A DNA stretch of 64,000 bases from a bacterium (GTDB taxonomy: Bacteria > UBA8248): positions 2,944,001-3,008,000 of the forward strand of contig OY843592.1 in the NCBI GenBank assembly GCA_963692865.2. Direction: 5' to 3'. Made by a program: the position numbers and the translations under genes. The notes beneath the pieces were generated by a model. That model was not told the origin of the DNA and ran no database searches. It worked only from the letters and a program-made list of their open reading frames with translations. This document shows positions 7,030 through 21,047 of the stretch, in pieces (the first letter of the stretch is position 1; the number at the start of each line of letters is the position of its first letter).

Positions 7030-7638
7030 ATGAGCCAGATGATTGAAATCCTGCAGCCCACCTCCTTCATCCGCGCGGGCGACCACCCCCTCGCGGAGCG
7101 GCCCGAGGACATCGGGGGCCTCAGGGTCGGCTTCTTCCACAACAACAAGCCCAACGCCGACGTCCTGCTCGAACAGGTCGAGGAGCTTTTCGCGCGCGAA
7201 GACGAGACGCTGCGCGTCGTCCGCTGGGGAAAGCCGAACCCCACCCTCCCCGAAGACCGGATTGAGGAATTCATCGAACAGGTGGACGTGGCCGTCTGCG
7301 CGGTGGGCGACTGAGGGAGCTGCACGTCATGGAGTATCCATGACTCGGTGGTGATGGAGAAGGCGGGCGTCCCCACGGCCACGTTCTGCTCCAGCGAATT
7401 CTCGGCCCTGGGCGCGAACGAGAGAACCGCCCTGGGCATGCCCGGCCTCCCGATAGTCGTCGTGGCGCATCCGGTGGGCGGCATCGCGCCCGAACAAGCG
7501 CGCGCCCTGGGCGACGGCGCCGTGGAGGAGATTCGGCGAATCCTCACGAGCGACGCCGAATCGCTCAGGCGGGAATACCGCGAGCGCGAATACGTCCCGC
7601 CCCGCAAGACGGTGCGCCACAAGGCGCTCTTCGCTTAG
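7030..7638 (+). CDS. UGSC-motif selenoprotein (thioredoxin-like), Sec at UGA 7312-7314
   Basis: ORFs 7030..7314 and 7348..7638 share a frame; read-through gives AVGD-U-GSCTSWSIHDSVVMEKAGVP; a hairpin follows the UGA. Confidence 0.85.
7326..7344 (+). promoter_or_regulatory. Putative bacterial SECIS element
   Basis: GTCATGGA-GTA-TCCATGAC perfect stem starting 11 nt after the UGA, with GU in the loop. Confidence 0.7.
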
Positions 7639-9355: not shown

Positions 9356-9955
9356 CTAGCAAGCCGCTTCCGGCGGCGGCAACATGGCTTCCACCTGTCC
9401 GACGATGGATTGCGGAAAACTCCGATCGGGGGAGACGCGCGCCAACACCCTGAGTCCGAGAAACAGACCGAACAAAGATTTCGCCGTTTGGTCCGGAACA
9501 ACTCGGGGGCATATCTCCCCGCAAGCCTGCCCCCGCTTGATGGAAGCGTGAAAAAACTCCGTCATGCCGGCGAACGCGCCGGCCACGAACGAAGCCACCT
9601 CTTCATCATGCGCCCCGAGCTCGAGGGCGACGTTGACTTCGAAGCAGCCCTCGCTCGACTCGTTGTCCACAGCCTTCGAGGCGACCGCTTTGAATACAGA
9701 GATCACCGCTCTGCGCGGCGAAGAATCCTTTTCGAGTTCCTGTATCGGAACTACGCGGTAAAACCGGTCGTAATGGTAAAGCGCCCGCAAGAACATCTGA
9801 CGCTTGCCGCCGAACGCATGGTACAGGCTGCCTCGCAAGAGACCCGTCGCCTTCTCCAGATCCCGAATCGACGTCGCCGAATAGCCATAGCGCCAAAACT
9901 GATCCATTGTTTTCGTCAAAATTTCGTCCATATCGAACTTTGGCGCTTTCCCCAT
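9356..9955 (-). CDS. TetR/AcrR family transcriptional regulator
   Basis: FWRYGYSATSIRDLEKATGLLRGSLYHAFGGK HTH; GCFEVN in the C-terminal domain. Confidence 0.9.
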   Translation of the reverse strand: MGKAPKFDMDEILTKTMDQFWRYGYSATSIRDLEKATGLLRGSLYHAFGGKRQMFLRALYHYDRFYRVVPIQELEKDSSPRRAVISVFKAVASKAVDNESSEGCFEVNVALELGAHDEEVASFVAGAFAGMTEFFHASIKRGQACGEICPRVVPDQTAKSLFGLFLGLRVLARVSPDRSFPQSIVGQVEAMLPPPEAAC

Positions 9956-10270
9956 GGGTCCTCTCTTCGTTTTTCCCCGTTTTTACGCCGAATCACGGAA
10001 TTCCTGCTAACGCCATGTCAAAGCTGTAGCGGCTCAAGCCAGCCCACCAATTTGATGGTTAGCACACGGGCAAGCCCGTTTCAAGAAAAATCGTTCCCCG
10101 GCGGATTATTCCCCGGGAAGCGCTCGTGCGCCTGCGTTTAGAGTCTTTTTTGCCCGGTGGCGCGGGATAAATCCATTCATTTGCATTGCCTCGTGTTCGG
10201 CCCCGTGCTAGATTCTCGTTTCCGGGGAAGCCGACCTTTCTTTTCTGCCGAGACGCGGGAGGAACAACCC

Positions 10271-10663
10271 ATGGCGAAGCAACGAATCGACTCCGACAAG
10301 GTGAAGCCTGTCGCCGCGTATTCCACGGGCTGGAAGGTATCGAACGGACATCTCATCATGCTGGCGGGCCAGGTGGCGGTCGCCGTGGACGGCAACACCA
10401 TCGGCGGCGACGACATCCGGGCACAGACCCGGCAGGTGTACGAGAACATCAAGGCCGCGCTGGAGGCGGCGGGCGCCGGGATGGCGGACATCATCCGCCT
10501 CACGGTCTATATCACCGATCCTGCGAATGTCCCGGGATGTATGGAGGTGCGGCAGACCTACTTCGGCGAACCCTACCCTGCGAGCACGCTCCTGATCGTG
10601 AGCGGCCTGGCGAAACCGGAGTGGCTCATCGAGATCGACGCGATCGCCTTCGTGGAAGACTAG
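10271..10663 (+). CDS. Rid/YjgF family protein (lacks the catalytic Arg)
   Basis: AGQV, QTRQVYENI, YPASTL and LIEIDAIA motifs; start moved to the ATG after the GGAGG RBS. Confidence 0.9.
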   Translation: MAKQRIDSDKVKPVAAYSTGWKVSNGHLIMLAGQVAVAVDGNTIGGDDIRAQTRQVYENIKAALEAAGAGMADIIRLTVYITDPANVPGCMEVRQTYFGEPYPASTLLIVSGLAKPEWLIEIDAIAFVED

Positions 10664-10667
10664 AAAC

Positions 10668-11522
10668 ATGAGCAGCCGCAGGGCCATCGCCGATACGCTC
10701 GTGCTCGTCAAGGGAGGCGGAGACCTCGCCACAGGCGTCGCGCACCGTCTGTACCGCGCGGGGTTTCCACTCGTTATCACCGAAATTGAAAACCCCACCA
10801 TGGTGAGGCGCACCGTCTCCTTCGCCGAATGCCTCTACGCCGATGGATGGCAAGTAGAGGGCGTAACCTCCGCCCGGGCGGACGGCGAAACTCCCTCGGA
10901 AAAAGCAATGAGCGCGCGCGCCATCCTGGAGGCGGGTTCGATTCCGGTGATGGTGGACCCGCGCGCAGACGCAATCGCCCACGTCCGGCCCGCCGTCGTG
11001 GTCGATGCGATTCTGGCGAAGCGGAACCTCGGCACGCGCATCGATGACGCGGAGGTCGTGGTCGGCCTGGGGCCGGGCTTCACGGCGGGCGTGGATTGCC
11101 ACGCCGTCATCGAGACCTCGCGGGGGCATGACCTGGGACGGGTGATTCTGGAGGGCGCGGCCAAACCGAACACGGGCGTTCCGGGGCCCATCGGCGGCTA
11201 CACCACCGAGCGGCTCTTGCGCGCTCCCAAGGCCGGCGTCTTCACCTCCATCGCCCGAATCGGCGACACGGTGCGCGCGGGAGAAGCCGTCGCCCGCGTG
11301 GACGGCGAGGAGGTGCGCTCCGCCATCGACGGCGTTTTGCGCGGGCTTCTGAGAGACGGCATCGAGGTGAGCGACGGCTTCAAGGTGGGCGACGTCGACC
11401 CGAGGGCCGAGCCCTCCCATTGCCACACGATATCGGATAAATCGCGCGCCATCGGCGGCGGCGCGCTCGAGGCCATCATGATGTTCCTGTTCGGCGTTTC
11501 AGCCATGGAGTATGCGAATTGA
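10668..11522 (+). CDS. yqeB: Selenium-dependent molybdenum hydroxylase system protein YqeB
   Basis: VKGGGDLATGVAHRL, VRRTVSF, VDAILAKRN, GLGPGFTAG, ETSRGHDLG and ISDKSRAIGGG motifs. Confidence 0.9.
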   Translation: MSSRRAIADTLVLVKGGGDLATGVAHRLYRAGFPLVITEIENPTMVRRTVSFAECLYADGWQVEGVTSARADGETPSEKAMSARAILEAGSIPVMVDPRADAIAHVRPAVVVDAILAKRNLGTRIDDAEVVVGLGPGFTAGVDCHAVIETSRGHDLGRVILEGAAKPNTGVPGPIGGYTTERLLRAPKAGVFTSIARIGDTVRAGEAVARVDGEEVRSAIDGVLRGLLRDGIEVSDGFKVGDVDPRAEPSHCHTISDKSRAIGGGALEAIMMFLFGVSAMEYAN

Positions 11523-12403
11523 GTACCGAGATATTGAGTGAAACGGTGGAAAACGGCGTCTACAACATCGGACGCAGCGAAATCCCCATCAACGAGACCA
11601 ACGGCAACTCCTTCGTTCCCCCTGCGCAGTTCTATCTGGCGGCGGGCGACGCGCTCGAGCGCATCGCGTGGGCGGTGAGCCAAAACCTGCCCGTCCTCCT
11701 CGTGGGGGAGACCGGCGTCGGCAAGACCCTCTCGGTGCGCCACCTCGCCCACATGACGAACAACGGCTTCCGGCGCGTGAACCTAAACGGCATGACCACG
11801 GTCGATGAGTTCGTGGGCAAGCTGATGATCAACGAACAGGGCACCTACTGGGTGAACGGCATCCTGGTCGACGCCATGGAATCGGGCGACTGGCTGCTTA
11901 TCGACGAGATCAACGCATGTCTGCCGGAAATCGCCTTCTGCCTGCACAGCCTGCTCGACGACGACCGCATGATCGTCTTGTCCGAATACGACGGCCGCAT
12001 CGTCAAGCCCCACCCGAATTTCAGGCTCTTCGCCAGCATGAACCCGCACGAGGACCGCAGATACGGCGGCACCAAGCCCCTGAACGAGGCGCTTCTGGAT
12101 CGCTTCCCGGTCACCGTGAAGATGGACTACCTGCCTTTCGAGGCGGAAGTCGAGGTCATCATGCAGCAGAGCGGGAACCGCGACGAGGAGCTCGTCAAGC
12201 GCATGGTGCGCGTGGGCCACGACGTGCGCGAGGCCATGCAGAACGAGAAGGTGTTCTGCACGTTCAGCACCCGGCGCCTCATCGACTGGGCGCGCATGGC
12301 GGCGCAGTTCGACCCCATGGAAGCCGCCGTCTCGACGATTTTCAGCAAGGTCAACTCTTTCGACGCCAAGGTGCTCGAGGACATCGTAGACAACCACTTC
12401 TAG
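11519..12403 (+). CDS. MoxR-family AAA+ ATPase (CbbQ/NirQ/NorQ-like)
   Basis: Walker A GETGVGKT, Walker B LLIDEIN, LLDRF and C-terminal STRRL; start overlaps the yqeB stop. Confidence 0.9.
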   Translation: MSTEILSETVENGVYNIGRSEIPINETNGNSFVPPAQFYLAAGDALERIAWAVSQNLPVLLVGETGVGKTLSVRHLAHMTNNGFRRVNLNGMTTVDEFVGKLMINEQGTYWVNGILVDAMESGDWLLIDEINACLPEIAFCLHSLLDDDRMIVLSEYDGRIVKPHPNFRLFASMNPHEDRRYGGTKPLNEALLDRFPVTVKMDYLPFEAEVEVIMQQSGNRDEELVKRMVRVGHDVREAMQNEKVFCTFSTRRLIDWARMAAQFDPMEAAVSTIFSKVNSFDAKVLEDIVDNHF

Positions 12404-12417
12404 CCGGGAGATGAGGC

Positions 12418-14189
12418 ATGGAGCGCCGACGCGCCCGTCTCGAAGCGCTCGCGCAGGTGACCGCGCACGATTACGACCTCGCCCTGAACTTCGGCCCCAA
12501 GGCGAAGAACGGCGAGGACGCCATTCACGTCGAGGACCCCGAACAGACCCTGGCGCGCCTGGGCGGCGGACTCAACGACGAGCACGTCCTCAGATTCCAG
12601 AAAGGCATGACGCTCATCGAAGTGGCCCACAAAATCCACGGCACGTTCCGCTGGGCGGGGCGCGCCGCGCTCGCGAACCGCGAGAGGCCGGGTCTTTTCC
12701 ACATCTGGCACACGCTCGAGGACGCGCGGTGCGAAAACCGCCTCGCCGAATCGCTGCCCGGCACCAGGAAGAATTTCCGCGCCTTCATTCTGCCTGCCAT
12801 CGAGGCGGCCGAACGCAACCAGATGAGCGGGCAACTCCCCTTGTTTCTCCAGATCCAGTGGGGAATCTACCTCGCCGGGATCGGGCAGACGCCCGGCGTC
12901 CCCTCCTCGCGGCCCGGAGACTTGCCGGCGGCCTGGTTCGACACCGCCGTCGTCCAGATATTCCACAGGCTCACCCCGCTGGTAGACCGCGCCTGCGCCG
13001 CCGATGACCCCAAGACCGCCTTCGATTGCGCGAACGAGATCTACGACGCCATCCAGCGCTATCTCACCGAAGAGCAACTGGCCCGGATGAGCGAGGATCA
13101 GGACCTCTCGGATATCCCCGAGGAAATTTTAGAGAAAATCGAGAGCCAGAACCTCGAAGGCGACGACGACGAAGCGATGGAGATGCTTCACCCCGAAGCG
13201 GCGGAGGAAATCGACGAAGAGGACGTGGGCGAGCAGGTCGAACTGAGTCCCGAGGAACTCGCGGCGCTCGGGCACTGGGCCGCCCCCTGGTTCGAGTTAG
13301 AGGGCAACAAGAAGGAAATCCACCCCACCGCCGAGCATCCCGACGAGCGCACGGTCGTACTGCCGCCGGAGGGCAAGGCCGAGGAATACGCGGCGGTCAT
13401 CGACAATGCGGGCAGCCAAATCAAGGTGCTGGTGTGGAAGCTCATGCAGATCATCCAGGAGAGAACCTACACCCGCTACAGCGGCTCGCACCGCTCGGGC
13501 AAGCTGAACCTCCCCAAGCTGTGGAAACAGCGGCTGGGGAAATTCCATCTCTTCCACCGCAGGGAAGAGCCCGACAACTCGACGTGTGCTTCACGCTGCT
13601 CGTGGACGAGAGCGGCAGCATGAACCGCGAGTCGAAATACATGGCCGCCCGGGAGGCGACCATCTTCTTCGCCGAAGCGCTCGACCGCATCGACGTGCCC
13701 TTCGAGGTCATCGGCTATTCCACCGAGAGCTCGGAAGCCGCCATGGCGGCGGCCCTGGGCCACATCCCGGCGTTCAAGTTCCGCCACATCCGGCACTCGC
13801 CGCTGCAACACCGCATCTACAAGGGCTTTGAGGATCAGTTCGCCCAGGTGAAGCACAGGCTCGTCAACATCTATCCGCGCTTCAACAACTGGGACGAGGA
13901 GCACCTGCTCTTCGCCTACCGCAGGCTCATCCAGCGGCCCGAGGAGGAGAAGATCATCATCATCACCTCCGACGGCCAGCCCAACGGGGACGCGACCCAC
14001 CTCGTGAACACGGTGAACCGGCTGCAGAAACTCGGCGTCCGCGTCATCGGCGTCGGCGTGGTGGACCCATTCGTGGAGCAGATCTACCCCAACCACATCG
14101 TCGTGCAGGACCTCTCCCAGCTTTCCACCGAACTCGTGAACATCCTGAGGCGCGAACTGCTCGGCGGGTTGGAGAGCCGCGCTTGGTAG
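12418..14189 (+). pseudogene. CobT/NorD-like vWA-domain protein, frameshifted near 13575
   Basis: N-part in the 12418 frame (LEDARCE, acidic linker, SGKLN); vWA domain in the -1 frame (LDVCFTLLVDESGSM MIDAS, ITSDGQP). May be a sequencing error. Confidence 0.8.
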
Positions 14190-15010
14190 CGCGAGAGAGC
14201 GTCGTCCGCTCCCTCGGGGTCGAACCGGGCCAGAGCGTCGCGGCTGTCGGCGGGGGCGGAAAAACGAGCCTGCTGACGGCCATCGCCAGGCAGTTTCACG
14301 CCCAAAACGGAATGCCTGCGATTCTCACGACGACTACGAAGATTTTCGCGCCCCTCCCCGAAGAAGGAATCCATCTCGCTTTGGGCGACGCCGAGACGCT
14401 CGCAGAGAACCTCCGCCCCTACATGGGCGCCTGCGGCATATCCTGGCTCGCCAGAAAGCGCGAGGGCGAAGCCCCAATTCCGGGCCGGGAGAGCGAGCGG
14501 CGCATGAAGCTGGGCGGTTTTACGCCTTCGGAAATTGCCCGCTTCACGCCGGGTGACGCCCTGACGCTCATCGAGGCGGACGGCGCGAGAAGACTGCCCA
14601 TCAAGGCGCCCGGCCCCGGTGAGCCCGTCCTGCCCGAAGGCCTGGACGCCGTGCTGGGCGTCATCGGGCTGGACGCGCTGGGCGCGCCCTTGAGCGAGGC
14701 GCACGTCTTCCGCCCCGATGCGCTCTCACGCATATGCGATCTGGGAGCCGGAGAAGAGATTACGGCGGAGACGGTCGGGAAGTTGTGCGCGCATCCTGAT
14801 GGTCTTTTTCATAAAGCGGAGGCCGGCGCCCGCAAGTGGATCGTCATCAACAAGGCGGATCTGGAAACCTCGCTGGAAAAATTGCGCGAAATCGCATATA
14901 TTGTATGGGAGTTTGCCGGAAAACCTCATGGCCCGGCGGACGGCATCCTCTTTACGTCTTGTACGAACAACGAATGTGAAGTATTCATACGTATCACACA
15001 AGATGCGTAA
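14183..15010 (+). CDS. yqeC: Selenium cofactor biosynthesis protein YqeC
   Basis: VGGGGKTS, LTTTTKI, LIEADGARRLPIKAP..EP and VINKAD motifs. Confidence 0.9.
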   Translation: MVARESVVRSLGVEPGQSVAAVGGGGKTSLLTAIARQFHAQNGMPAILTTTTKIFAPLPEEGIHLALGDAETLAENLRPYMGACGISWLARKREGEAPIPGRESERRMKLGGFTPSEIARFTPGDALTLIEADGARRLPIKAPGPGEPVLPEGLDAVLGVIGLDALGAPLSEAHVFRPDALSRICDLGAGEEITAETVGKLCAHPDGLFHKAEAGARKWIVINKADLETSLEKLREIAYIVWEFAGKPHGPADGILFTSCTNNECEVFIRITQDA

Positions 15011-15041
15011 CGACTGCAATTCCAAGCAGGCGGAGCAAGGA

Positions 15042-16187
15042 ATGAGCAAGGACGTATTCAGGGAAATGGCGAAACTCAAGGAAGACGGCCAGGGCGGCGC
15101 GCTCGCCACCGTCGTGGCCCGCAAGGGGTCCGCGCCCATGAGCGGCGATGCGAAGATGCTCGTGCGCGAGGACGGCAGCACGGAGGGCACGGTCGGCGGC
15201 GGCTGTCTCGAAGCCGAAGTCTGGGAAACCGCCATGAGCGTCCTGGAGACGGGCGCACCCGAAAAGCTGCGCTTCGACCTCACCCAGCAGGAAGCCGAAG
15301 ACAGCGGGCACATCTGCGGCGGCGTGGTGGAGATACTCGTGGAGCCGTTCCAGGCGTTCCAGGAAGAGTTGCTCGGCGAGATCAACCGCATCAGAACCGA
15401 GGGCGGCAGCGCCGCGCTGGCGACCATCGTTCAGCCGGGCGATATCGACGCGCCGAATGCGGAGAACAGGAAGATGCTCTTCCGGCGCGACGGCAGCGCC
15501 GTGGGCGATATTCCCACCTACTCGACGGAGATATGGGCGGAGAGCACCCAGATCATCCGAAACGGCAGCCCCACGCTCCTGCAGTTCAACAGGGACGCCG
15601 CGCGCGCCGGAGAAAAGCGCTCGACGCTCACCGAGGCCACCGAAATTTTCGTCGAACCCATATCCGGCCAGCCCCTCGTCTATATTTTCGGCGGCGGTCA
15701 CGTCTCCTTCTGCGTCGCGCAGGCGGCCTACCTCGCGGGATTCCGCGTTTCGGTCGTCGAGGACAGACCCTCGTTCGCCAACAAGGAGCGCTTCCCGATG
15801 GCGGAATCGTTCCACGTGGGGGAATTCCCTGAAATTTTCGAGAAAATCCCGGTCGATGAGTCCGACTACCTGGCCATCATCACCCGAGGCCACGCGAACG
15901 ACGAGGTCGTCCTCGAGTGGGCGATGAAGTCCGACGCGCGCTACATCGGGATGATTGGCTCCAAAAGCAAGGTGCTGCTCACCTATCGCCACCTCCAGGA
16001 CAAGGGGTATGACCGCGGCGAACTCATCGAGCGCGTCCATGCGCCCATAGGCCTCGACATCGGCGCCGATACGCCGGGCGAGATCGGGGTGGCCATCGTC
16101 GCCGAACTCATCCGGCACCGCCGCAAAGGCGAGGCGCAGGGCGAAGGCGCGGGCAGCAAGAGGGTGCAACTCAGAAGAAAATCCTAA
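15042..16187 (+). CDS. xdhC: XdhC/CoxF family molybdenum cofactor chaperone
   Basis: GSAP, GTVGGGCLE, ICGG, IFGGGHV, YIGMIGSKSK and PIGLDIGADTPGEIGVAIVAEL motifs; start at MSKDVF. Confidence 0.9.
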   Translation: MSKDVFREMAKLKEDGQGGALATVVARKGSAPMSGDAKMLVREDGSTEGTVGGGCLEAEVWETAMSVLETGAPEKLRFDLTQQEAEDSGHICGGVVEILVEPFQAFQEELLGEINRIRTEGGSAALATIVQPGDIDAPNAENRKMLFRRDGSAVGDIPTYSTEIWAESTQIIRNGSPTLLQFNRDAARAGEKRSTLTEATEIFVEPISGQPLVYIFGGGHVSFCVAQAAYLAGFRVSVVEDRPSFANKERFPMAESFHVGEFPEIFEKIPVDESDYLAIITRGHANDEVVLEWAMKSDARYIGMIGSKSKVLLTYRHLQDKGYDRGELIERVHAPIGLDIGADTPGEIGVAIVAELIRHRRKGEAQGEGAGSKRVQLRRKS

Positions 16188-16267
16188 ATCTTCACGCCGC
16201 AGCCGGCCCGTCCGAGGAGGGCCGCATTCCTTAAAACCCGGACCCATGGAAGGTTCTTGCAGGAACC

Positions 16268-17023
16268 ATGGGTTATCTCCGCAGGCTCATCGGCGCAGCG
16301 ACGGATTTCCTCATTCCCCCGAAATGCCTCTTGTGTTCGGCTTCCATGAATATCGGCGAACCGCATGCGATATGCGCGCCATGCACGGAAGCCTTCGAGC
16401 GCTTCGAACCGCCCTGGTGCCCGAGATGCGGCAATCCCTTCCATTCCATGACCGCCCTCGCCCACTCCCCGGCGCACGTCTGCGCGGATTGCCTCGAAAG
16501 CGGACATCACTACGACATGGCCCGCGCCATCGGCGCGTATGAGGGCCTGCTGAGGGACTCGGTCCACCTCTTCAAGTTCCAGGGTTTCACGAAGCTCGCC
16601 CGCGAGTTCGCGCCCCTCCTCGCCGGGCTTGCGGCGGAGGAGTTCGGTATCGAAGATGACGCGCAGAACGTGGTCGTGACGCACGTGCCCATCGCCCCCG
16701 CCCGCTGGCGGACGAGAGGCTTCGATCAGGCGAAGCTGCTCGCCCTCATGACGGCGGAATGCCTGGAGCGGCCCCACGCGGATTTTATCGAGCGCGCGAA
16801 GGAGACCCGCTCGCAGACGGGCCTCACCGCGCGGGAGCGGCGCCGGAACATGCGCGGCGTCTTCGGTGTTCGGAACAAGGGAGTGCGCGAAAAACTCGAA
16901 GCGGCCACGTGCATCCTCGTTGACGACGTCGTCACGACCGGCTCGACCGCCTCGGCCTGCGCCCGCGAACTCAAAAAAGCAGGCGCCGAAGCGGTGCACC
17001 TGCTCACGATATGCAGGTCTTGA
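16268..17023 (+). CDS. comF: ComF family protein (double zinc ribbon plus PRTase)
   Basis: Four CxxC pairs, RGFDQ, QTGL..RRRN and LVDDVVTTGST. Confidence 0.9.
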   Translation: MGYLRRLIGAATDFLIPPKCLLCSASMNIGEPHAICAPCTEAFERFEPPWCPRCGNPFHSMTALAHSPAHVCADCLESGHHYDMARAIGAYEGLLRDSVHLFKFQGFTKLAREFAPLLAGLAAEEFGIEDDAQNVVVTHVPIAPARWRTRGFDQAKLLALMTAECLERPHADFIERAKETRSQTGLTARERRRNMRGVFGVRNKGVREKLEAATCILVDDVVTTGSTASACARELKKAGAEAVHLLTICRS

Positions 17024-17148
17024 AGGCGAGAGTTTTCGTAGCGCGACCTGTCCCTACGGATTAAATCTTCAAAAAACCACGAACAAAATAACGAAACCAA
17101 GCAAATATGACGGAAGGCATAACAACGATTTGAATGACAACAAAATAG

Positions 17149-17195
17149 TTGACAACATATTTGATGTATGATTAAATTCAACAGATATGTTGAAT
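17149..17195 (+). promoter_or_regulatory. Sigma70-like promoter with an overlapping palindromic operator
   Basis: TTGACA (17149) with TAAATT 18 bp downstream; ATTCAACA-GATA-TGTTGAAT palindrome at 17176-17195 in an AT-rich spacer. Confidence 0.55.
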
Positions 17196-17223
17196 CACAA
17201 AGAAATTTACGAAAGGAATTCGT

Positions 17224-18456
17224 ATGAAATCATCCACTGGCCGCTGGGTGAGCGGCGACGACTTTTTTGATCGTGAACCCGAATTACAGATACTGGAAGC
17301 ACAAGTCCAAGACCGCAATCACGTATTGTTGACCGGACAGCGGCGCATGGGAAAAACCAGCATTGCCCGAGAACTCGGGAGGTGGCTAGAAGCCAAAGAC
17401 TGGGTTTTCCTCTTCGCAGACGTAGAGGGGGCAGCTTGTCCGGAGGACGTTATCGCCCAAATCGCCCAAGCTGCGCATCCGGTTCGCGCGCTCTCCTCGC
17501 GTTTCACCGCCTGGTCTGAGCGCTTCTTTAGCGACAACATCGAGGAAATCAACGCGCTCGATTTTGGCGTGAAGTTCCGCGCCGGGCTGGATGCAGGCAG
17601 CTGGCGACGTCACGGAGAGCGACTGTTTCGAGATTGCGCCGAGTATGACAAGCCTGTTTTGCTCGTCATCGACGAATTGCCGATCTTCCTGAAACGGATG
17701 CTCCACAATGACGGCGATGCACGGCGGGTCGACGAGTTCATGAGTTGGCTGCGCGGCGTGCTTCAGGCGCTGGGAGAAGATTCTCCAGTCCTCATGTTAT
17801 CAGGAAGCATCGGGCTGGAGCCTCTTATGCGCAGACTCGGCCTGCCCGACCGCATCAACCATCTGTACCCCTTTCGCCTGGGTCCGTGGAGCCGCGACAC
17901 CTCCATCGAGTGTTTCGAACATCTCTCGGAGAGTTACGAAATATCCGTCGAGGCCGGGGTGGCGGATGCAGTATACGAAACCTTGGGAGTCGGCATACCT
18001 CACCATGTGCAGTCTTTCTTTGCGCGTTTGCGGGATTTCGCCACGATGCAGGAGCGGGAGCGGATAACGGTTGAAGACGTCGGCGAAGTCTATCGCAACG
18101 CGCTTCTGGGGGCTTCGGGACAAAATGATCTCGTACACTACGAAACACGCCTGAAAGAAGGCATCGAGGATGAAAACTACTCCATCGCCATGGAGATTCT
18201 GGCCGAGGCGGCGACTCTGGAGGTATTCACGCCCGCTGCCAGAAAGTGTCTCGAACGCTTGTATTCCACGGTGGTAGACGATGCGCCCAGTCGCATTGCG
18301 GACATTATCGAAGTCCTCGCGTACGACGGGTATCTGGAATCCGGCGATGGCGGCTACCGTTTCCCGTCGCGCTTGCTCAAGGATTGGTGGTCGGCGCGCT
18401 TCCGCGATCATCACACGCCCCTCGAAAAACGCCGACCCGAGGACAAATCACAATAG
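17224..18456 (+). CDS. STAND/archaeal-type P-loop ATPase with probable C-terminal winged helix
   Basis: FFDREPEL, Walker A GQRRMGKT, Walker B LLVIDE, GIPHHVQ and FPSRLLKDWW. Confidence 0.8.
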   Translation: MKSSTGRWVSGDDFFDREPELQILEAQVQDRNHVLLTGQRRMGKTSIARELGRWLEAKDWVFLFADVEGAACPEDVIAQIAQAAHPVRALSSRFTAWSERFFSDNIEEINALDFGVKFRAGLDAGSWRRHGERLFRDCAEYDKPVLLVIDELPIFLKRMLHNDGDARRVDEFMSWLRGVLQALGEDSPVLMLSGSIGLEPLMRRLGLPDRINHLYPFRLGPWSRDTSIECFEHLSESYEISVEAGVADAVYETLGVGIPHHVQSFFARLRDFATMQERERITVEDVGEVYRNALLGASGQNDLVHYETRLKEGIEDENYSIAMEILAEAATLEVFTPAARKCLERLYSTVVDDAPSRIADIIEVLAYDGYLESGDGGYRFPSRLLKDWWSARFRDHHTPLEKRRPEDKSQ

Positions 18457-18464
18457 AGGACCCA

Positions 18465-21047
18465 ATGAACGAAACGTCCAACAGGCAAATCCGCAAGTTC
18501 AACCCGGGCGCATACCAGTCGGATGAGGAGTTGATGGAGCAATTCGTCGTCCGAAACCGCGAACTGGAAATCGTACTCGAAGTGCTCCGCGCGAACATCG
18601 ACTCCCCATCGTGTCAGCACGTTCTGGCCGTCGCCCCGCGCGGTCGAGGGAAAACCATGCTTCTGGCCCGCGCCGCAGCGGAAATCCGCGCAAACGACGA
18701 ACTCGCCCGACGCCTGTTGCCCGTCCGTTTCATGGAAGAGAGCCAAGAGATTTTCCATATGGCCGACTTCTGGCTGGAGGCGCTGTTTCACCTGGCCAGA
18801 GAGAGCGCCCCTCACGATCCCGAACTCGCGCAAGAACTGCGAGCTACGCACGCCGACCTGGCCGCTCACTGGGGAGATCGGTCGCTTGAAGACCGCGCCC
18901 GCGCCGCCGTTCTGCAGGCGGCGGATCGACTGGACAGAAAACTCGTGCTGATGGTCGAGAACCTGCAAGCTCTGTGCGACAGCGTGGATGCGGATTTCGG
19001 CTGGAAGCTGCGCGGGGCGTTGCAGTCCGAACCCAAGATAATGCTGCTCGCCTCCGCCACCAGCCGCTTCGAGAGTCTGGACGATGCGCAGCAACCCTTC
19101 TTCGAGTTGTTTCGTATCATCTGCCTGGAGCCGCTGACCACCGAAGAGTGCCGTCTCCTGTGGCAGGCGGTGAGTGGGGACGAAGTGAGCGGGCGCGAGA
19201 TCAGGCCGCTTCAGATACTGACCGGAGGCAGCCCCCGCCTCCTCGTCATCGTCGCCGGATTCGCGCGCCATCACTCCCTTCGCCAGTTGATGGAAGAGTT
19301 GGTGACGCTGATAGACGAGCACACCGAGTATTTCCGAAGCCATCTGGAAGTCCTGGCCAAAACTGAACGCCGCGTCTATCTCGCGGTAATCGACCTTTGG
19401 CGGCCGTCGAGCACCTCCGAAATCGCGGCGCGCGCGCGCATGGACGTTCGGACCGTATCGACCATGCTCGGGCGGCTTGTCGAGCGGGGTGCGGTGATCG
19501 TGGAAGGAAAAGGCAGGAAGCGCCATTACGCCGCCGCCGAACGTCTCTACAGCATTTACTACAAGCTGCGGCGCGAAAGAGACGAAGCGGCCGTCGTGGA
19601 GAATCTGATCCGTTTCATGGTGGTTTTCTACAACGAAGAAGAACGGGCGGAGATGTTCCCCCGGCTGATTCGGGAGGCGACGGAATCAGCCGCCATTCGG
19701 GAGGGTCTCGACAGGGCGGCCGCCGGACTCCCGGAATTCGAGAGCCTGTATACCGGCATCATGCAGAGAAGCCGGTGGGAGCATCTAGTGGAGGAGATTG
19801 CAACGGCGTTCAAAGGGAGGGACTTCCAGAAAGTCATCGAGACCATAGGCCGCGCGTTTGCCGTCGATGGCGCAAACCGGTCTCAAGCGTCGGAGTCCAT
19901 CATTGCCTGGCTATTGCTTCGGAAGGCGTATTCACATCAAGAACTAGGCGATTTCGAAGCGGCGATAACAACCTATGAAGAGATAGCCGAACGCTTTGCC
20001 GACAGCGACGAACCTGAAATCCAACAGCGCGTCGCTACGGCGTTGGTAGACAAGGGAGATGTGCTGGAAGAACTCGGCGACTTCAAGGCGGCGATTGCAA
20101 CATACAGTGAGTTAGTCAATCGTTTTGGTGGCAGCAACACACTGGATATCCAATGGTGGGTCGCTACAGCTTTGGTTTGCAATGGAAATGCACTGGAAGA
20201 ACTCGGGGATTTCGAAGCGGCGATTATCACCTACGAGGAAGTTGTCAAGCGTTTTTCAAACAGCAACGTACCTGAAATCCAGTGGTGGGTCGCTGCAGCG
20301 TTAATCAATCAGGGGGATGTACAAAGCGAACTTGGCAATTGCGAAGTAGCAATAGCGACTTACAATGAAGTAGTAAAGCGCTTTGGTAACATCAACTCGC
20401 CGGAGATTCAGGAGCGGGTCGCCGTTGCGTTGGTCTTCAAGGGAATTGTGCGAGAAAAACTCGGCGATTTCGAAAGGGCGATTGCGGCCTATAAAGAAGT
20501 GGTCGAACGTTTTATCGACAACAGTGCGCCGGAATTGCAATTGTGGATAGCGAGGGCATTAGCCGATATGAGTATTGCACAAACTCAAATCGGTCGCGCA
20601 GATGAAGCACTGCACACTTGCGAGGAACTCGAACGAAGACTCGGAACATTCCTGACCGGCGAAGAAGAAACCGAGTTTCGGTGGCGAGTGATGTACACGC
20701 GAGTCTTGGCTCTACTAGGAAAGGGAGAACACCGAGCCGCCATGGACGCGTTTCGCTCCGCGTATGTCGAGTTCCTTCCTCGCAACGAAATCCCGATTCA
20801 CGAAATGCTGCGATTAGTGCCTAACTTGATCGCAGCGGGCGCATCGACCCATAAGCTCGTCGAAATCCTCACGAGCGATGAGACGAAATCCGGCGCGTTG
20901 GCACCCCTGATCGTCGCCCTGCGTCAACATGCTGGCGAGGCTGTTCGTGCGCCGGCGGAAGTGCTCGAAGTGGCTGCGGATATCCTTGAACGTATCGAGG
21001 AACAATCAGAGAAAGGTGTTTCCGGGGCTTCCCGACAACCTGAATAA
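18465..21047 (+). CDS. ATPase - winged helix - 43-aa TPR-like repeat protein (NLR-like architecture)
   Basis: APRGRGKT, VLMVEN, TGGSPRL, HTH TSEIAARARMDVRTVSTMLGRLVERG, then ELGDF.AAI.TY repeats; start at MNETSN after AGAGGA. Confidence 0.8.
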   Translation: MNETSNRQIRKFNPGAYQSDEELMEQFVVRNRELEIVLEVLRANIDSPSCQHVLAVAPRGRGKTMLLARAAAEIRANDELARRLLPVRFMEESQEIFHMADFWLEALFHLARESAPHDPELAQELRATHADLAAHWGDRSLEDRARAAVLQAADRLDRKLVLMVENLQALCDSVDADFGWKLRGALQSEPKIMLLASATSRFESLDDAQQPFFELFRIICLEPLTTEECRLLWQAVSGDEVSGREIRPLQILTGGSPRLLVIVAGFARHHSLRQLMEELVTLIDEHTEYFRSHLEVLAKTERRVYLAVIDLWRPSSTSEIAARARMDVRTVSTMLGRLVERGAVIVEGKGRKRHYAAAERLYSIYYKLRRERDEAAVVENLIRFMVVFYNEEERAEMFPRLIREATESAAIREGLDRAAAGLPEFESLYTGIMQRSRWEHLVEEIATAFKGRDFQKVIETIGRAFAVDGANRSQASESIIAWLLLRKAYSHQELGDFEAAITTYEEIAERFADSDEPEIQQRVATALVDKGDVLEELGDFKAAIATYSELVNRFGGSNTLDIQWWVATALVCNGNALEELGDFEAAIITYEEVVKRFSNSNVPEIQWWVAAALINQGDVQSELGNCEVAIATYNEVVKRFGNINSPEIQERVAVALVFKGIVREKLGDFERAIAAYKEVVERFIDNSAPELQLWIARALADMSIAQTQIGRADEALHTCEELERRLGTFLTGEEETEFRWRVMYTRVLALLGKGEHRAAMDAFRSAYVEFLPRNEIPIHEMLRLVPNLIAAGASTHKLVEILTSDETKSGALAPLIVALRQHAGEAVRAPAEVLEVAADILERIEEQSEKGVSGASRQPE
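19941..20630 (+). repeat. Intragenic 129-bp (43-aa) tandem repeats, 5 full plus 1 partial
   Basis: Units begin at 19941, 20070, 20199, 20328, 20457 and 20586. Confidence 0.85.

Follow-up and report, generated by a model that had tools for sequence, protein, structure and literature searches.

A MoxR-class AAA+/vWA gene pair between yqeB and yqeC: a candidate trans-acting maturation operon for molybdenum hydroxylases

What does an AAA+ ATPase with a vWA (von Willebrand factor type A) partner do between yqeB and yqeC, two genes of the labile-selenium trait of molybdenum hydroxylases? The question is raised by a 64,000-nucleotide (nt) stretch of contig OY843592.1 (assembly GCA_963692865.2), hereafter the window, which corresponds to C1:2944001-3008000 of the bacterium's own genome. 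In it, six genes encoding Rid, YqeB, the AAA+ ATPase, the vWA protein, YqeC and XdhC lie head to tail on the + strand at 10271-16187. We explain this string as a trans-acting operon for completing the active sites of molybdenum hydroxylases of the xanthine oxidase family, selenium being the likely ligand, and taken as a whole we hold this explanation to be evenly poised. Its parts differ in strength. The operon is almost certainly real, and the ATPase/vWA pair probably serves the maturation of molybdenum hydroxylases; that the step served is specific to selenium is tentative, and we lean slightly to the contrary. The proposed mechanism is built on a compact operon, a yqeB-ATPase-vWA unit that withstands rearrangement, the joint presence and absence of the pair and hydroxylases, and a sister pair found at hydroxylase genes.

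The gene string and its conservation within the phylum

Profile searches assigned the six genes as follows.

10271..10663, + strand: Rid/YjgF-family protein (PF01042, 95.2 bits; TIGR00004, 77.7 bits, under its cut-off of 106.25)
10668..11522, + strand: YqeB (TIGR03309, 363.3 bits against an equivalog cut-off of 220)
11519..12403, + strand: AAA+ ATPase of the MoxR/CbbQ/NorQ/CobS class (PF07728 AAA_5, 100.5 bits; PF08406 CbbQ_C, 39.9 bits; PF07726, 39.3 bits against a threshold of 27)
[quoted passage not shown]
14183..15010, + strand: YqeC, a P-loop protein (TIGR03172, 157.2 bits against an equivalog cut-off of 73.05; PF19842, 116 bits)
15042..16187, + strand: XdhC-family chaperone for inserting the molybdenum cofactor (PF02625 XdhC_CoxI, 87.5 bits; PF13478, Rossmann, 127.9 bits)

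The genes are tightly packed: the stop of yqeB and the start of the ATPase gene share the letters TTGA in a 4-nt overlap, the last 7 nt of the vWA gene are shared with yqeC, which starts with TTG, and the remaining gaps within the string measure 4, 14 and 31 nt. This order, with its overlaps and short gaps, had been described in a first-pass annotation made from the letters of the window, and both the profile matches and a check of the overlap letters bear it out. XdhC stays under the named equivalog cut-offs (NF045664, XdhC_rel_AOR, 309.8 against 350 bits; TIGR02964, 116.7 against 161.6 bits). A promoter and terminator scan of 9800-17300 found sites no more frequent than in shuffled sequence, and the same scan placed no terminator-like site on the + strand inside the cluster; these outcomes weigh neither way. 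The first-pass annotation had also remarked that no hydroxylase structural gene lies nearby; indeed, PF02738, the large subunit of molybdenum hydroxylases, has no match inside the window, the nearest ones being at C1:2397740 and C1:3287055.

The gene list of that annotation stands as well, except that it overlooked a frame break in the vWA gene. The letters of the window split this gene into 12418-13623 and 13578-14189, with the vWA domain and its MIDAS in the -1 frame. Contigs of four public runs (X19-X22) have one additional A after 13575 and are otherwise identical over 13200-14000, the word depths at the site being 44, 28, 56 and 4. The four runs come from one study, possibly from the source sample, and contain 94-97% of the sampled words of 13200-14000; 18 sponge-metagenome runs share 0.17-0.22 of these words. 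The vWA orthologues have no internal stop in 30 of the 30 related loci that passed a completeness filter, a count from which 4 more loci with matches cut short were excluded and in which some loci are the same record twice (L050 and L107, for example). Because the run contigs carry the extra A and the orthologues read through, the break is an assembly error; the gene is whole and encodes 590 aa. Lone frame breaks also occur in other operon genes of related assemblies, namely, in yqeC of L033, yqeB of L036 and comF of L047, and these are likely the same sort of consensus error as the missing A of the window. For searches and folds of the vWA protein, the unbroken orthologue from L021 was used, whose identity to that of the window is 97% in the N-terminal part and 98% in the C-terminal part.

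How far does the arrangement extend beyond the window? An ATPase scan of species-representative genomes gave 30 loci with 75-98% identity. The order yqeB-ATPase-vWA-yqeC-xdhC is complete in 24 of them, and the other 6 are colinear until they end at a contig edge. Of the 30 related loci, 24 have the Rid gene upstream of yqeB, and class-level relatives do not have it at the module; the gene lies outside the conserved core of the string. Across a phylum sample of 51 genomes, the ATPase was found in 47, yqeB in 49 and yqeC in 49. Two of the 49 yqeB matches are truncated, come from assemblies of 460-490 contigs, and belong to the four genomes without an ATPase match. yqeB is directly upstream of the ATPase gene, on the same strand, in all 47 genomes with the ATPase, which span 13 genera and 3 families. 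The gene arrangement is more than chance, with the reservation that these genomes are kin, so that the counts describe one lineage.

The position of yqeC is less constant. It follows the vWA gene in 35 of the 47 genomes, the contig stops earlier in 7, and in 5 genomes, all of family f4, it is located elsewhere: at a distance of 368 kb in G004 and 598 kb in G002, and on other contigs in G001, G003 and G007. Four of these, the class-level relatives G001 to G004, have only yqeB, the ATPase gene and the vWA gene together, amid flanking genes of no relation. The flanks of this unit in G002 are a GNAT acetyltransferase gene on the opposite strand and an ornithine cyclodeaminase-like gene, and in G002 and G004, the two genomes in which XdhC was searched, the single yqeC stands immediately before the single XdhC gene. 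Since the f4 genomes keep yqeB-ATPase-vWA apart from yqeC-xdhC, the system consists of two modules, yqeB-ATPase-vWA and yqeC-xdhC, which are joined in the family of the window. A linkage of the pair to both yqeB and yqeC, as first proposed, is therefore half right: the unit with yqeB is conserved, but yqeC is not fixed to it.

Identity of the pair and of YqeB

The ATPase is highly conserved, with a mean column identity of 71% over 18 homologues and with GETGVGKT and D-E-I-N invariant. We take GETGVGKT to be the Walker A motif and D-E to be Walker B. In the vWA protein, the MIDAS motif D-E-S-x-S (D397, S399 and S401) is invariant in 28 homologues. Judged by these motifs (Walker A/B and MIDAS), the motor features of the pair are intact.

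Compared with PDB sequences, the ATPase matches midasin AAA modules first, followed by CobS (97.5 bits), NorQ (81.9 bits), CbbQ (80.1 bits) and a MoxR protein (45.3 bits); the NCBIfam matches listed for it are only CobS, GvpN and a putative cobaltochelatase. Among solved chains, the vWA protein matches CobT only (52.1 and 49.5 bits). The model of this protein, with a predicted local distance difference test (pLDDT) score of 77, shows three parts: an N-domain made of helices, an acidic linker (228-297) that is disordered, and the vWA domain at the C terminus. The best fold matches of this vWA domain are the NorD VWA domain in NorQ-NorD complexes (9qh6_G, E 1e-7; 9qhd_G) and the midasin MIDAS domain. 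The N-terminal part of 380 aa, including the long acidic linker, is without a Pfam family.

Two ready identities were rejected. The pair is not CobS/CobT proper: it misses the CobS equivalog (TIGR01650, 85.1 against 558.55 bits) and the CobT equivalog (TIGR01651, 55.4 against 759.05 bits) by far, and the own genome, 97.4% complete, yields no match to CobN (PF02514) or BchH, whereas the search was positive in 5 of 14 known genomes taken as controls. Nor is the vWA protein CoxE, since VWA_CoxE (PF05762) scores 19 bits against a gathering score of 26.4. The likeness to CoxD/CoxE on which the first-pass annotation drew thus probably does not amount to orthology, CobS, CobT, NorQ and NorD being closer. 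The pair is a separate clade of MoxR-class AAA+/vWA pairs. A search for fused forms of the ATPase in longer proteins returned only midasin-like multi-AAA proteins of <=49% identity; it found no YqeB-ATPase or ATPase-vWA fusion, which is weak evidence. Co-folding of the vWA protein (intact orthologue as first row) with YqeB gave 0.00 in two runs and weighs neither way.

The model of YqeB (pLDDT 88) consists of a Rossmann-like domain with an inserted barrel-sandwich domain of biotinyl/lipoyl-like type. The barrel aligns with the biotinyl carrier 2d5d_A (Z 10.1; root-mean-square deviation 1.4 over 64 residues), and no fold match was found for the whole chain (template modelling score of the query <=0.31), so that the likeness is one of domains only and by itself points to no function. 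An AccB likeness of YqeB was noted by Johnstone and Self in 2024 (PMC11448449), in agreement with the barrel domain. Near the C terminus of YqeB, an H-C-x-T-I-S-D-K motif is invariant in 17 orthologues. The same report calls the mechanism of labile-selenium insertion unknown and describes YqeB and YqeC as without recognised domains; its genetics in Clostridioides difficile have yqeB needed and yqeC dispensable (PMC11448449), a result that fits the tighter link of the pair to yqeB. YqeB is described as often fused to XdhC-like domains (PMC2276186). No mention of an ATPase or vWA partner was found in the accounts of the yqeB/yqeC trait that were consulted, supplementary neighbourhood tables being outside the scope, and no paper joining "yqeB" and "von Willebrand" was found in the literature searched; the supplements of Haft and Self 2008, of Lin et al. 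2015 and of the 2025 preprint might list such an ATPase.

Hydroxylases, selenium genes and a sister clade

If no hydroxylase gene lies in the window, where is the client? The own assembly (4.15 Mb in 8 contigs, 97.4% complete and 6.7% contaminated) has 11 PF02738 matches, which score 222-285 bits and lie in open frames 757-903 aa long; a pair of them (C1:1557150 and C8:24975) have the same score and may be one gene assembled twice. Three of these hydroxylases were scanned against NCBIfam, and none reached an equivalog cut-off. selD is located at C1:65915-66877 with one in-frame TGA (TIGR00476, 334.6 bits against a cut-off of 125). The first-pass annotation had named selD and molybdenum hydroxylases as genes to look for in this genome; both are present, so the reading does not fall for want of them. 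The genome has single copies of yqeB (363.1 bits in the genome search) and, by tblastn, of XdhC, the ATPase and the vWA protein. With 11 hydroxylase matches, none of them in the window, and one XdhC, one yqeB and one ATPase/vWA pair, the helper genes must act in trans, and the stand-alone accessory operon envisaged at first pass is upheld by this single helper set with no client nearby.

yqeC is present in two copies, the second at C1:243938-244579 (TIGR03172, about 135.4-136.4 bits), and two copies are found in nearly all genomes of the window's family. The second copy (L101, 3707-4660) lies between an iron alcohol dehydrogenase gene and an M20 peptidase gene; the peptidase recalls ygeY of the Escherichia coli selenium/hydroxylase region described by Haft and Self (PMC2276186). 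Two further selD-like matches near hydroxylase genes were examined and set aside as having no bearing on selenium: one is thiL (289.9 bits), and the other is HypE/AIR-synthase-like and under every cut-off. An AIR-synthase-family gene at C1:1117392-1118126 (L102, 5143-6354, - strand), under all named cut-offs (HypE 110 bits, SelD 91.8, ThiL 84.9), is 2 kb from a molybdenum hydroxylase large-subunit gene.

The pair and the hydroxylases also come and go together within the phylum. Two genomes of 2.1 Mb that are 95% complete (G005 and G006) have selD with TGA and are without PF02738, XdhC, yqeB, yqeC and the ATPase. At the other end, PF02738 has 74 matches in G002 (6.2 Mb) and 71 in G004 (5.2 Mb), each with one XdhC, and 6 in G042. 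The hydroxylase family of G002 and G004 is unusually large for one helper set, as each has one XdhC, one yqeB-ATPase-vWA unit and one yqeC.

A metagenome scan with an alignment of distant ATPase homologues gave 49 loci. Excluded were 32 (L068 to L099), which are other AAA_5 proteins with <=37% identity or short partial matches to the scan reference; 2 (L062 and L063) are of the window type; and 15 form or approach a sister group, their ATPases being 44-69% and mostly 60-69% identical to that of the window. Where a sister locus extends far enough past the ATPase gene, its vWA protein shares 24-32% identity with that of the window in the N-terminal part and about 49% in the C-terminal part. Thirteen of the 15 have a hydroxylase large-subunit gene upstream of the ATPase gene; the two are neighbours in 12 loci, and a single gene separates them in L057. 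Together with the joint loss in G005 and G006, these 13 loci independently back the tie of the pair to molybdenum hydroxylases that had been proposed from the window.

In L051, genes for a flavin adenine dinucleotide (FAD) subunit and a 2Fe-2S subunit are followed by those for a protein of 431 aa (hammerhead and MoCoBD_1 domains) and a MoCoBD_2 protein of 335 aa, and these in turn by the ATPase and vWA genes. L067 is arranged alike, and Pfam confirms its FAD and 2Fe-2S subunits. Against PDB sequences, the two halves of the split L051 subunit find their best matches, both full-length, in nicotinate dehydrogenase, namely, in its large subunit (3hrd_A, 211.6 bits) and its medium subunit (3hrd_B, 229.3 bits); 4-hydroxybenzoyl-CoA reductase and CO dehydrogenases come next. 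Nicotinate dehydrogenase is counted among the selenium-dependent hydroxylases (10.1101/2025.04.24.650524), and the substrate of the sister hydroxylase need not be nicotinate. Around these operons, six contigs (L051, L054, L055, L057, L066 and L067) have a sugar-acid-type dehydrogenase setting, with neighbours encoding a zinc alcohol dehydrogenase, a D-2-hydroxyacid dehydrogenase, a xylose-isomerase-like TIM barrel, a transketolase-like protein of 805-821 aa, an aldehyde dehydrogenase and a 3-hydroxyisobutyrate-dehydrogenase-like protein. An XdhC gene is found 6-8 kb downstream of sister hydroxylase operons.

ATPase sequences were compared in a quick maximum-likelihood tree with 51 rows and an unsure root. 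Its 39 yqeB-linked ATPases form one clade with a support of 100 in the Shimodaira-Hasegawa-like approximate likelihood ratio test (SH-aLRT), and 10 hydroxylase-linked rows fall outside it; the hydroxylase-linked sister clade is labelled Chloroflexota. This single clade indicates that the link to yqeB arose once.

The operon is flanked by a divergent regulator gene and by a colinear gene.

9356..9955, - strand: TetR-family regulator, divergent (PF00440, 44.7 bits; PF16925, 44 bits)
16268..17023, + strand: ComF/GntX-like phosphoribosyltransferase, 80 nt past xdhC (PF18912, 44.7 bits; PF00156, 29.9 bits)

By tblastn, matches to the TetR protein are confined to near-genus loci, and we treat it as context only. 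comF follows xdhC in 23 of 24 complete loci and is not beside the module in class-level relatives; this downstream neighbour is probably not part of the system. Past comF, two STAND-like ATPase genes occupy 17224-21047 on the + strand, one of 410 aa (AAA_16, AAA_22) and one of 933 aa (AAA_16, then many TPR repeats), and two short open reading frames lie on the + strand at 7030-7314 and 7348-7638.

Role of the pair and comparison with known systems

How might such a pair act? On the model of NorQ/NorD, CobS/CobT and CoxD/CoxE, it is the ATPase that would form a ring, and the vWA protein would dock through its MIDAS onto a client, either a folded apo-hydroxylase or a cofactor-loaded YqeB. ATP hydrolysis would open the client, allowing the labile terminal ligand of molybdenum to be installed or the finished cofactor to be handed over, and XdhC would hold and insert the cofactor. 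The likeliest ligand would be selenium from SelD-made selenophosphate, because YqeB, YqeC and SelD are present; likewise, selenium installation would be the likeliest step served, since the pair keeps to yqeB, not to xdhC, and genetics tie yqeB to selenium-dependent purine use. The proposal of the first-pass annotation, in which the pair remodels apo-hydroxylases so that YqeB and YqeC can install selenium, fares unequally: hydroxylase maturation is well supported, whereas the selenium-specific role is suggested by gene neighbourhood in one lineage.

Several observations weigh against the preferred explanation. The ATPase was found in none of 7 yqeB-positive genomes of other lineages (from a sample of 70), one of which encodes, on a different contig, an AAA protein of 29% identity, and YqeB evidently works without the pair there. 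Since the ATPase is absent from all 7, the link between the pair and yqeB is not a general part of the YqeB/YqeC trait; it is narrower than the first-pass annotation had it and confined to one phylum, no ATPase match at E 1e-40 or better having been found in 350 genomes outside it, with 6 candidates per genome scored. Near the 15 sister loci, tblastn found no yqeB or yqeC within flanks of 0.6-10 kb. As the link arose once, its conservation is partly inheritance, and the genomes are not independent trials. selD is required here for selenocysteine anyway, the own selD having an in-frame TGA. Finally, hydroxylases are reported to have no sequence signature for selenium dependence (10.1101/2025.04.24.650524).

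In the strongest alternative, the pair would be a general motor for the maturation or assembly of molybdenum hydroxylases (cofactor insertion, sulfuration or subunit assembly) with no special tie to selenium, in which case the adjacency to yqeB would reflect no more than a gathering of helper genes. The sister clade behind hydroxylase genes with neither yqeB nor yqeC in view and the outside yqeB genomes lacking the pair speak for it, as do the one module serving 6 to 74 hydroxylase paralogues and CoxD, which is tied to sulfuration of the molybdenum site and not to selenium (PMC4240915). However, where the helper genes are split, in G001 to G004, it is yqeB and not xdhC that the pair accompanies; all 47 genomes have yqeB next to the pair, and in the window the two overlap by 4 nt; and the sister client is, among solved structures, most like the selenium-dependent nicotinate dehydrogenase. 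We regard a general motor as a serious but rather unlikely account.

An unrelated client, such as a cobalt or magnesium chelatase, NO reductase or Rubisco to be activated, with an accidental adjacency to yqeB, is very improbable. CobS, CobT, NorQ and CbbQ are among the nearest solved relatives by sequence, and homologues carry database names such as "cobaltochelatase CobS" and "CobT-related", but the equivalog scores are far under their cut-offs, CobN and BchH are missing from the genome, the two independent genomic contexts both have molybdenum hydroxylases, and G005 and G006 have lost the pair along with the hydroxylases. A reading of the vWA gene as a pseudogene and of the motor as dead, which the break near 13576 in the window letters would imply, is hardly credible when the contigs of all four runs differ by one more A and nothing else, every orthologue reads through, and other long-read assemblies of the group show comparable single breaks in other genes.

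The preferred explanation remains a trans-acting operon for finishing hydroxylase active sites. It can be sharpened, speculatively, into an ATP-driven "selenium insertase" of YqeB, ATPase and vWA protein built like a class I chelatase, a possibility that we consider doubtful, and more so than the general motor. YqeB would then take the part of CobN, holding either the molybdenum cofactor or else a donor of selenium, and folded hydroxylases would be opened by the CobS/CobT-like motor, letting selenium replace the terminal molybdenum ligand after assembly. Such a machine would act in trans on a few to >70 paralogues, and the sister clade would do likewise for a dedicated nicotinate-dehydrogenase-like client.

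Among the ways in which selenium is used, the insertion of labile selenium into molybdenum hydroxylases is the least understood. A pair locked to yqeB across a phylum offers testable leads, namely, an energy-requiring step, a MIDAS docking site that can be mutated, and a three-gene unit. The scope is that of uncultured lineages, with gene neighbourhood as the one source of the selenium link. Within it, the pair is a maturation motor of a known kind, but its clade and its genomic setting are new, and it extends the AAA+/vWA logic of metal-site maturation (CoxDE, NorQD, CobST, CbbQO) to that clade.

How does the operon compare with the known systems? Like the YqeB/YqeC/SelD trait elsewhere, it has YqeB and YqeC over their equivalog cut-offs, selD and molybdenum hydroxylases in the genome, and an adjoining XdhC. 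Unlike it, an ATPase/vWA pair is inserted between yqeB and yqeC, and the host is an uncultured lineage labelled Nitrospinota/Tectomicrobia rather than a purinolytic anaerobe or an enterobacterium. CoxD (AAA+), CoxE (vWA) and CoxF (XdhC family), described as joint post-translational maturation factors of the molybdenum site of CO dehydrogenase in Oligotropha carboxidovorans (PMC4240915), form the same kind of set, an AAA+ protein, a vWA protein with MIDAS and an XdhC-family protein, with a xanthine-oxidase-family client in the Cox case. Here, in contrast, cox structural genes and a copper site are absent, the operon is remote from any client, YqeB and YqeC are present, and the ATPase has a CbbQ_C domain.

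NorQ/NorD belongs to the MoxR-class AAA+/VWA pairs and admits metal by remodelling an enzyme that is already folded (PMC9976466, PMC13036017), in this case non-haem iron for NO reductase. NorQ, as noted above, is a close relative of the ATPase, and the NorD VWA domain is the best fold match of the vWA protein; the client and the neighbours are different, and in the vWA protein of the window 380 aa make up an N-terminal part that includes a long acidic linker. CobS/CobT shares the order of an AAA+ gene followed by a vWA gene, the CobT_C domain, and an alignment to CobT that reaches before the vWA domain, whereas the neighbours here are molybdenum-cofactor genes instead of cobalamin genes, and CobN is missing. 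In the aerobic cobaltochelatase CobNST, the motor is reported to pass energy to a separate substrate-holding subunit (bioRxiv 10.64898/2026.10.09.757910).

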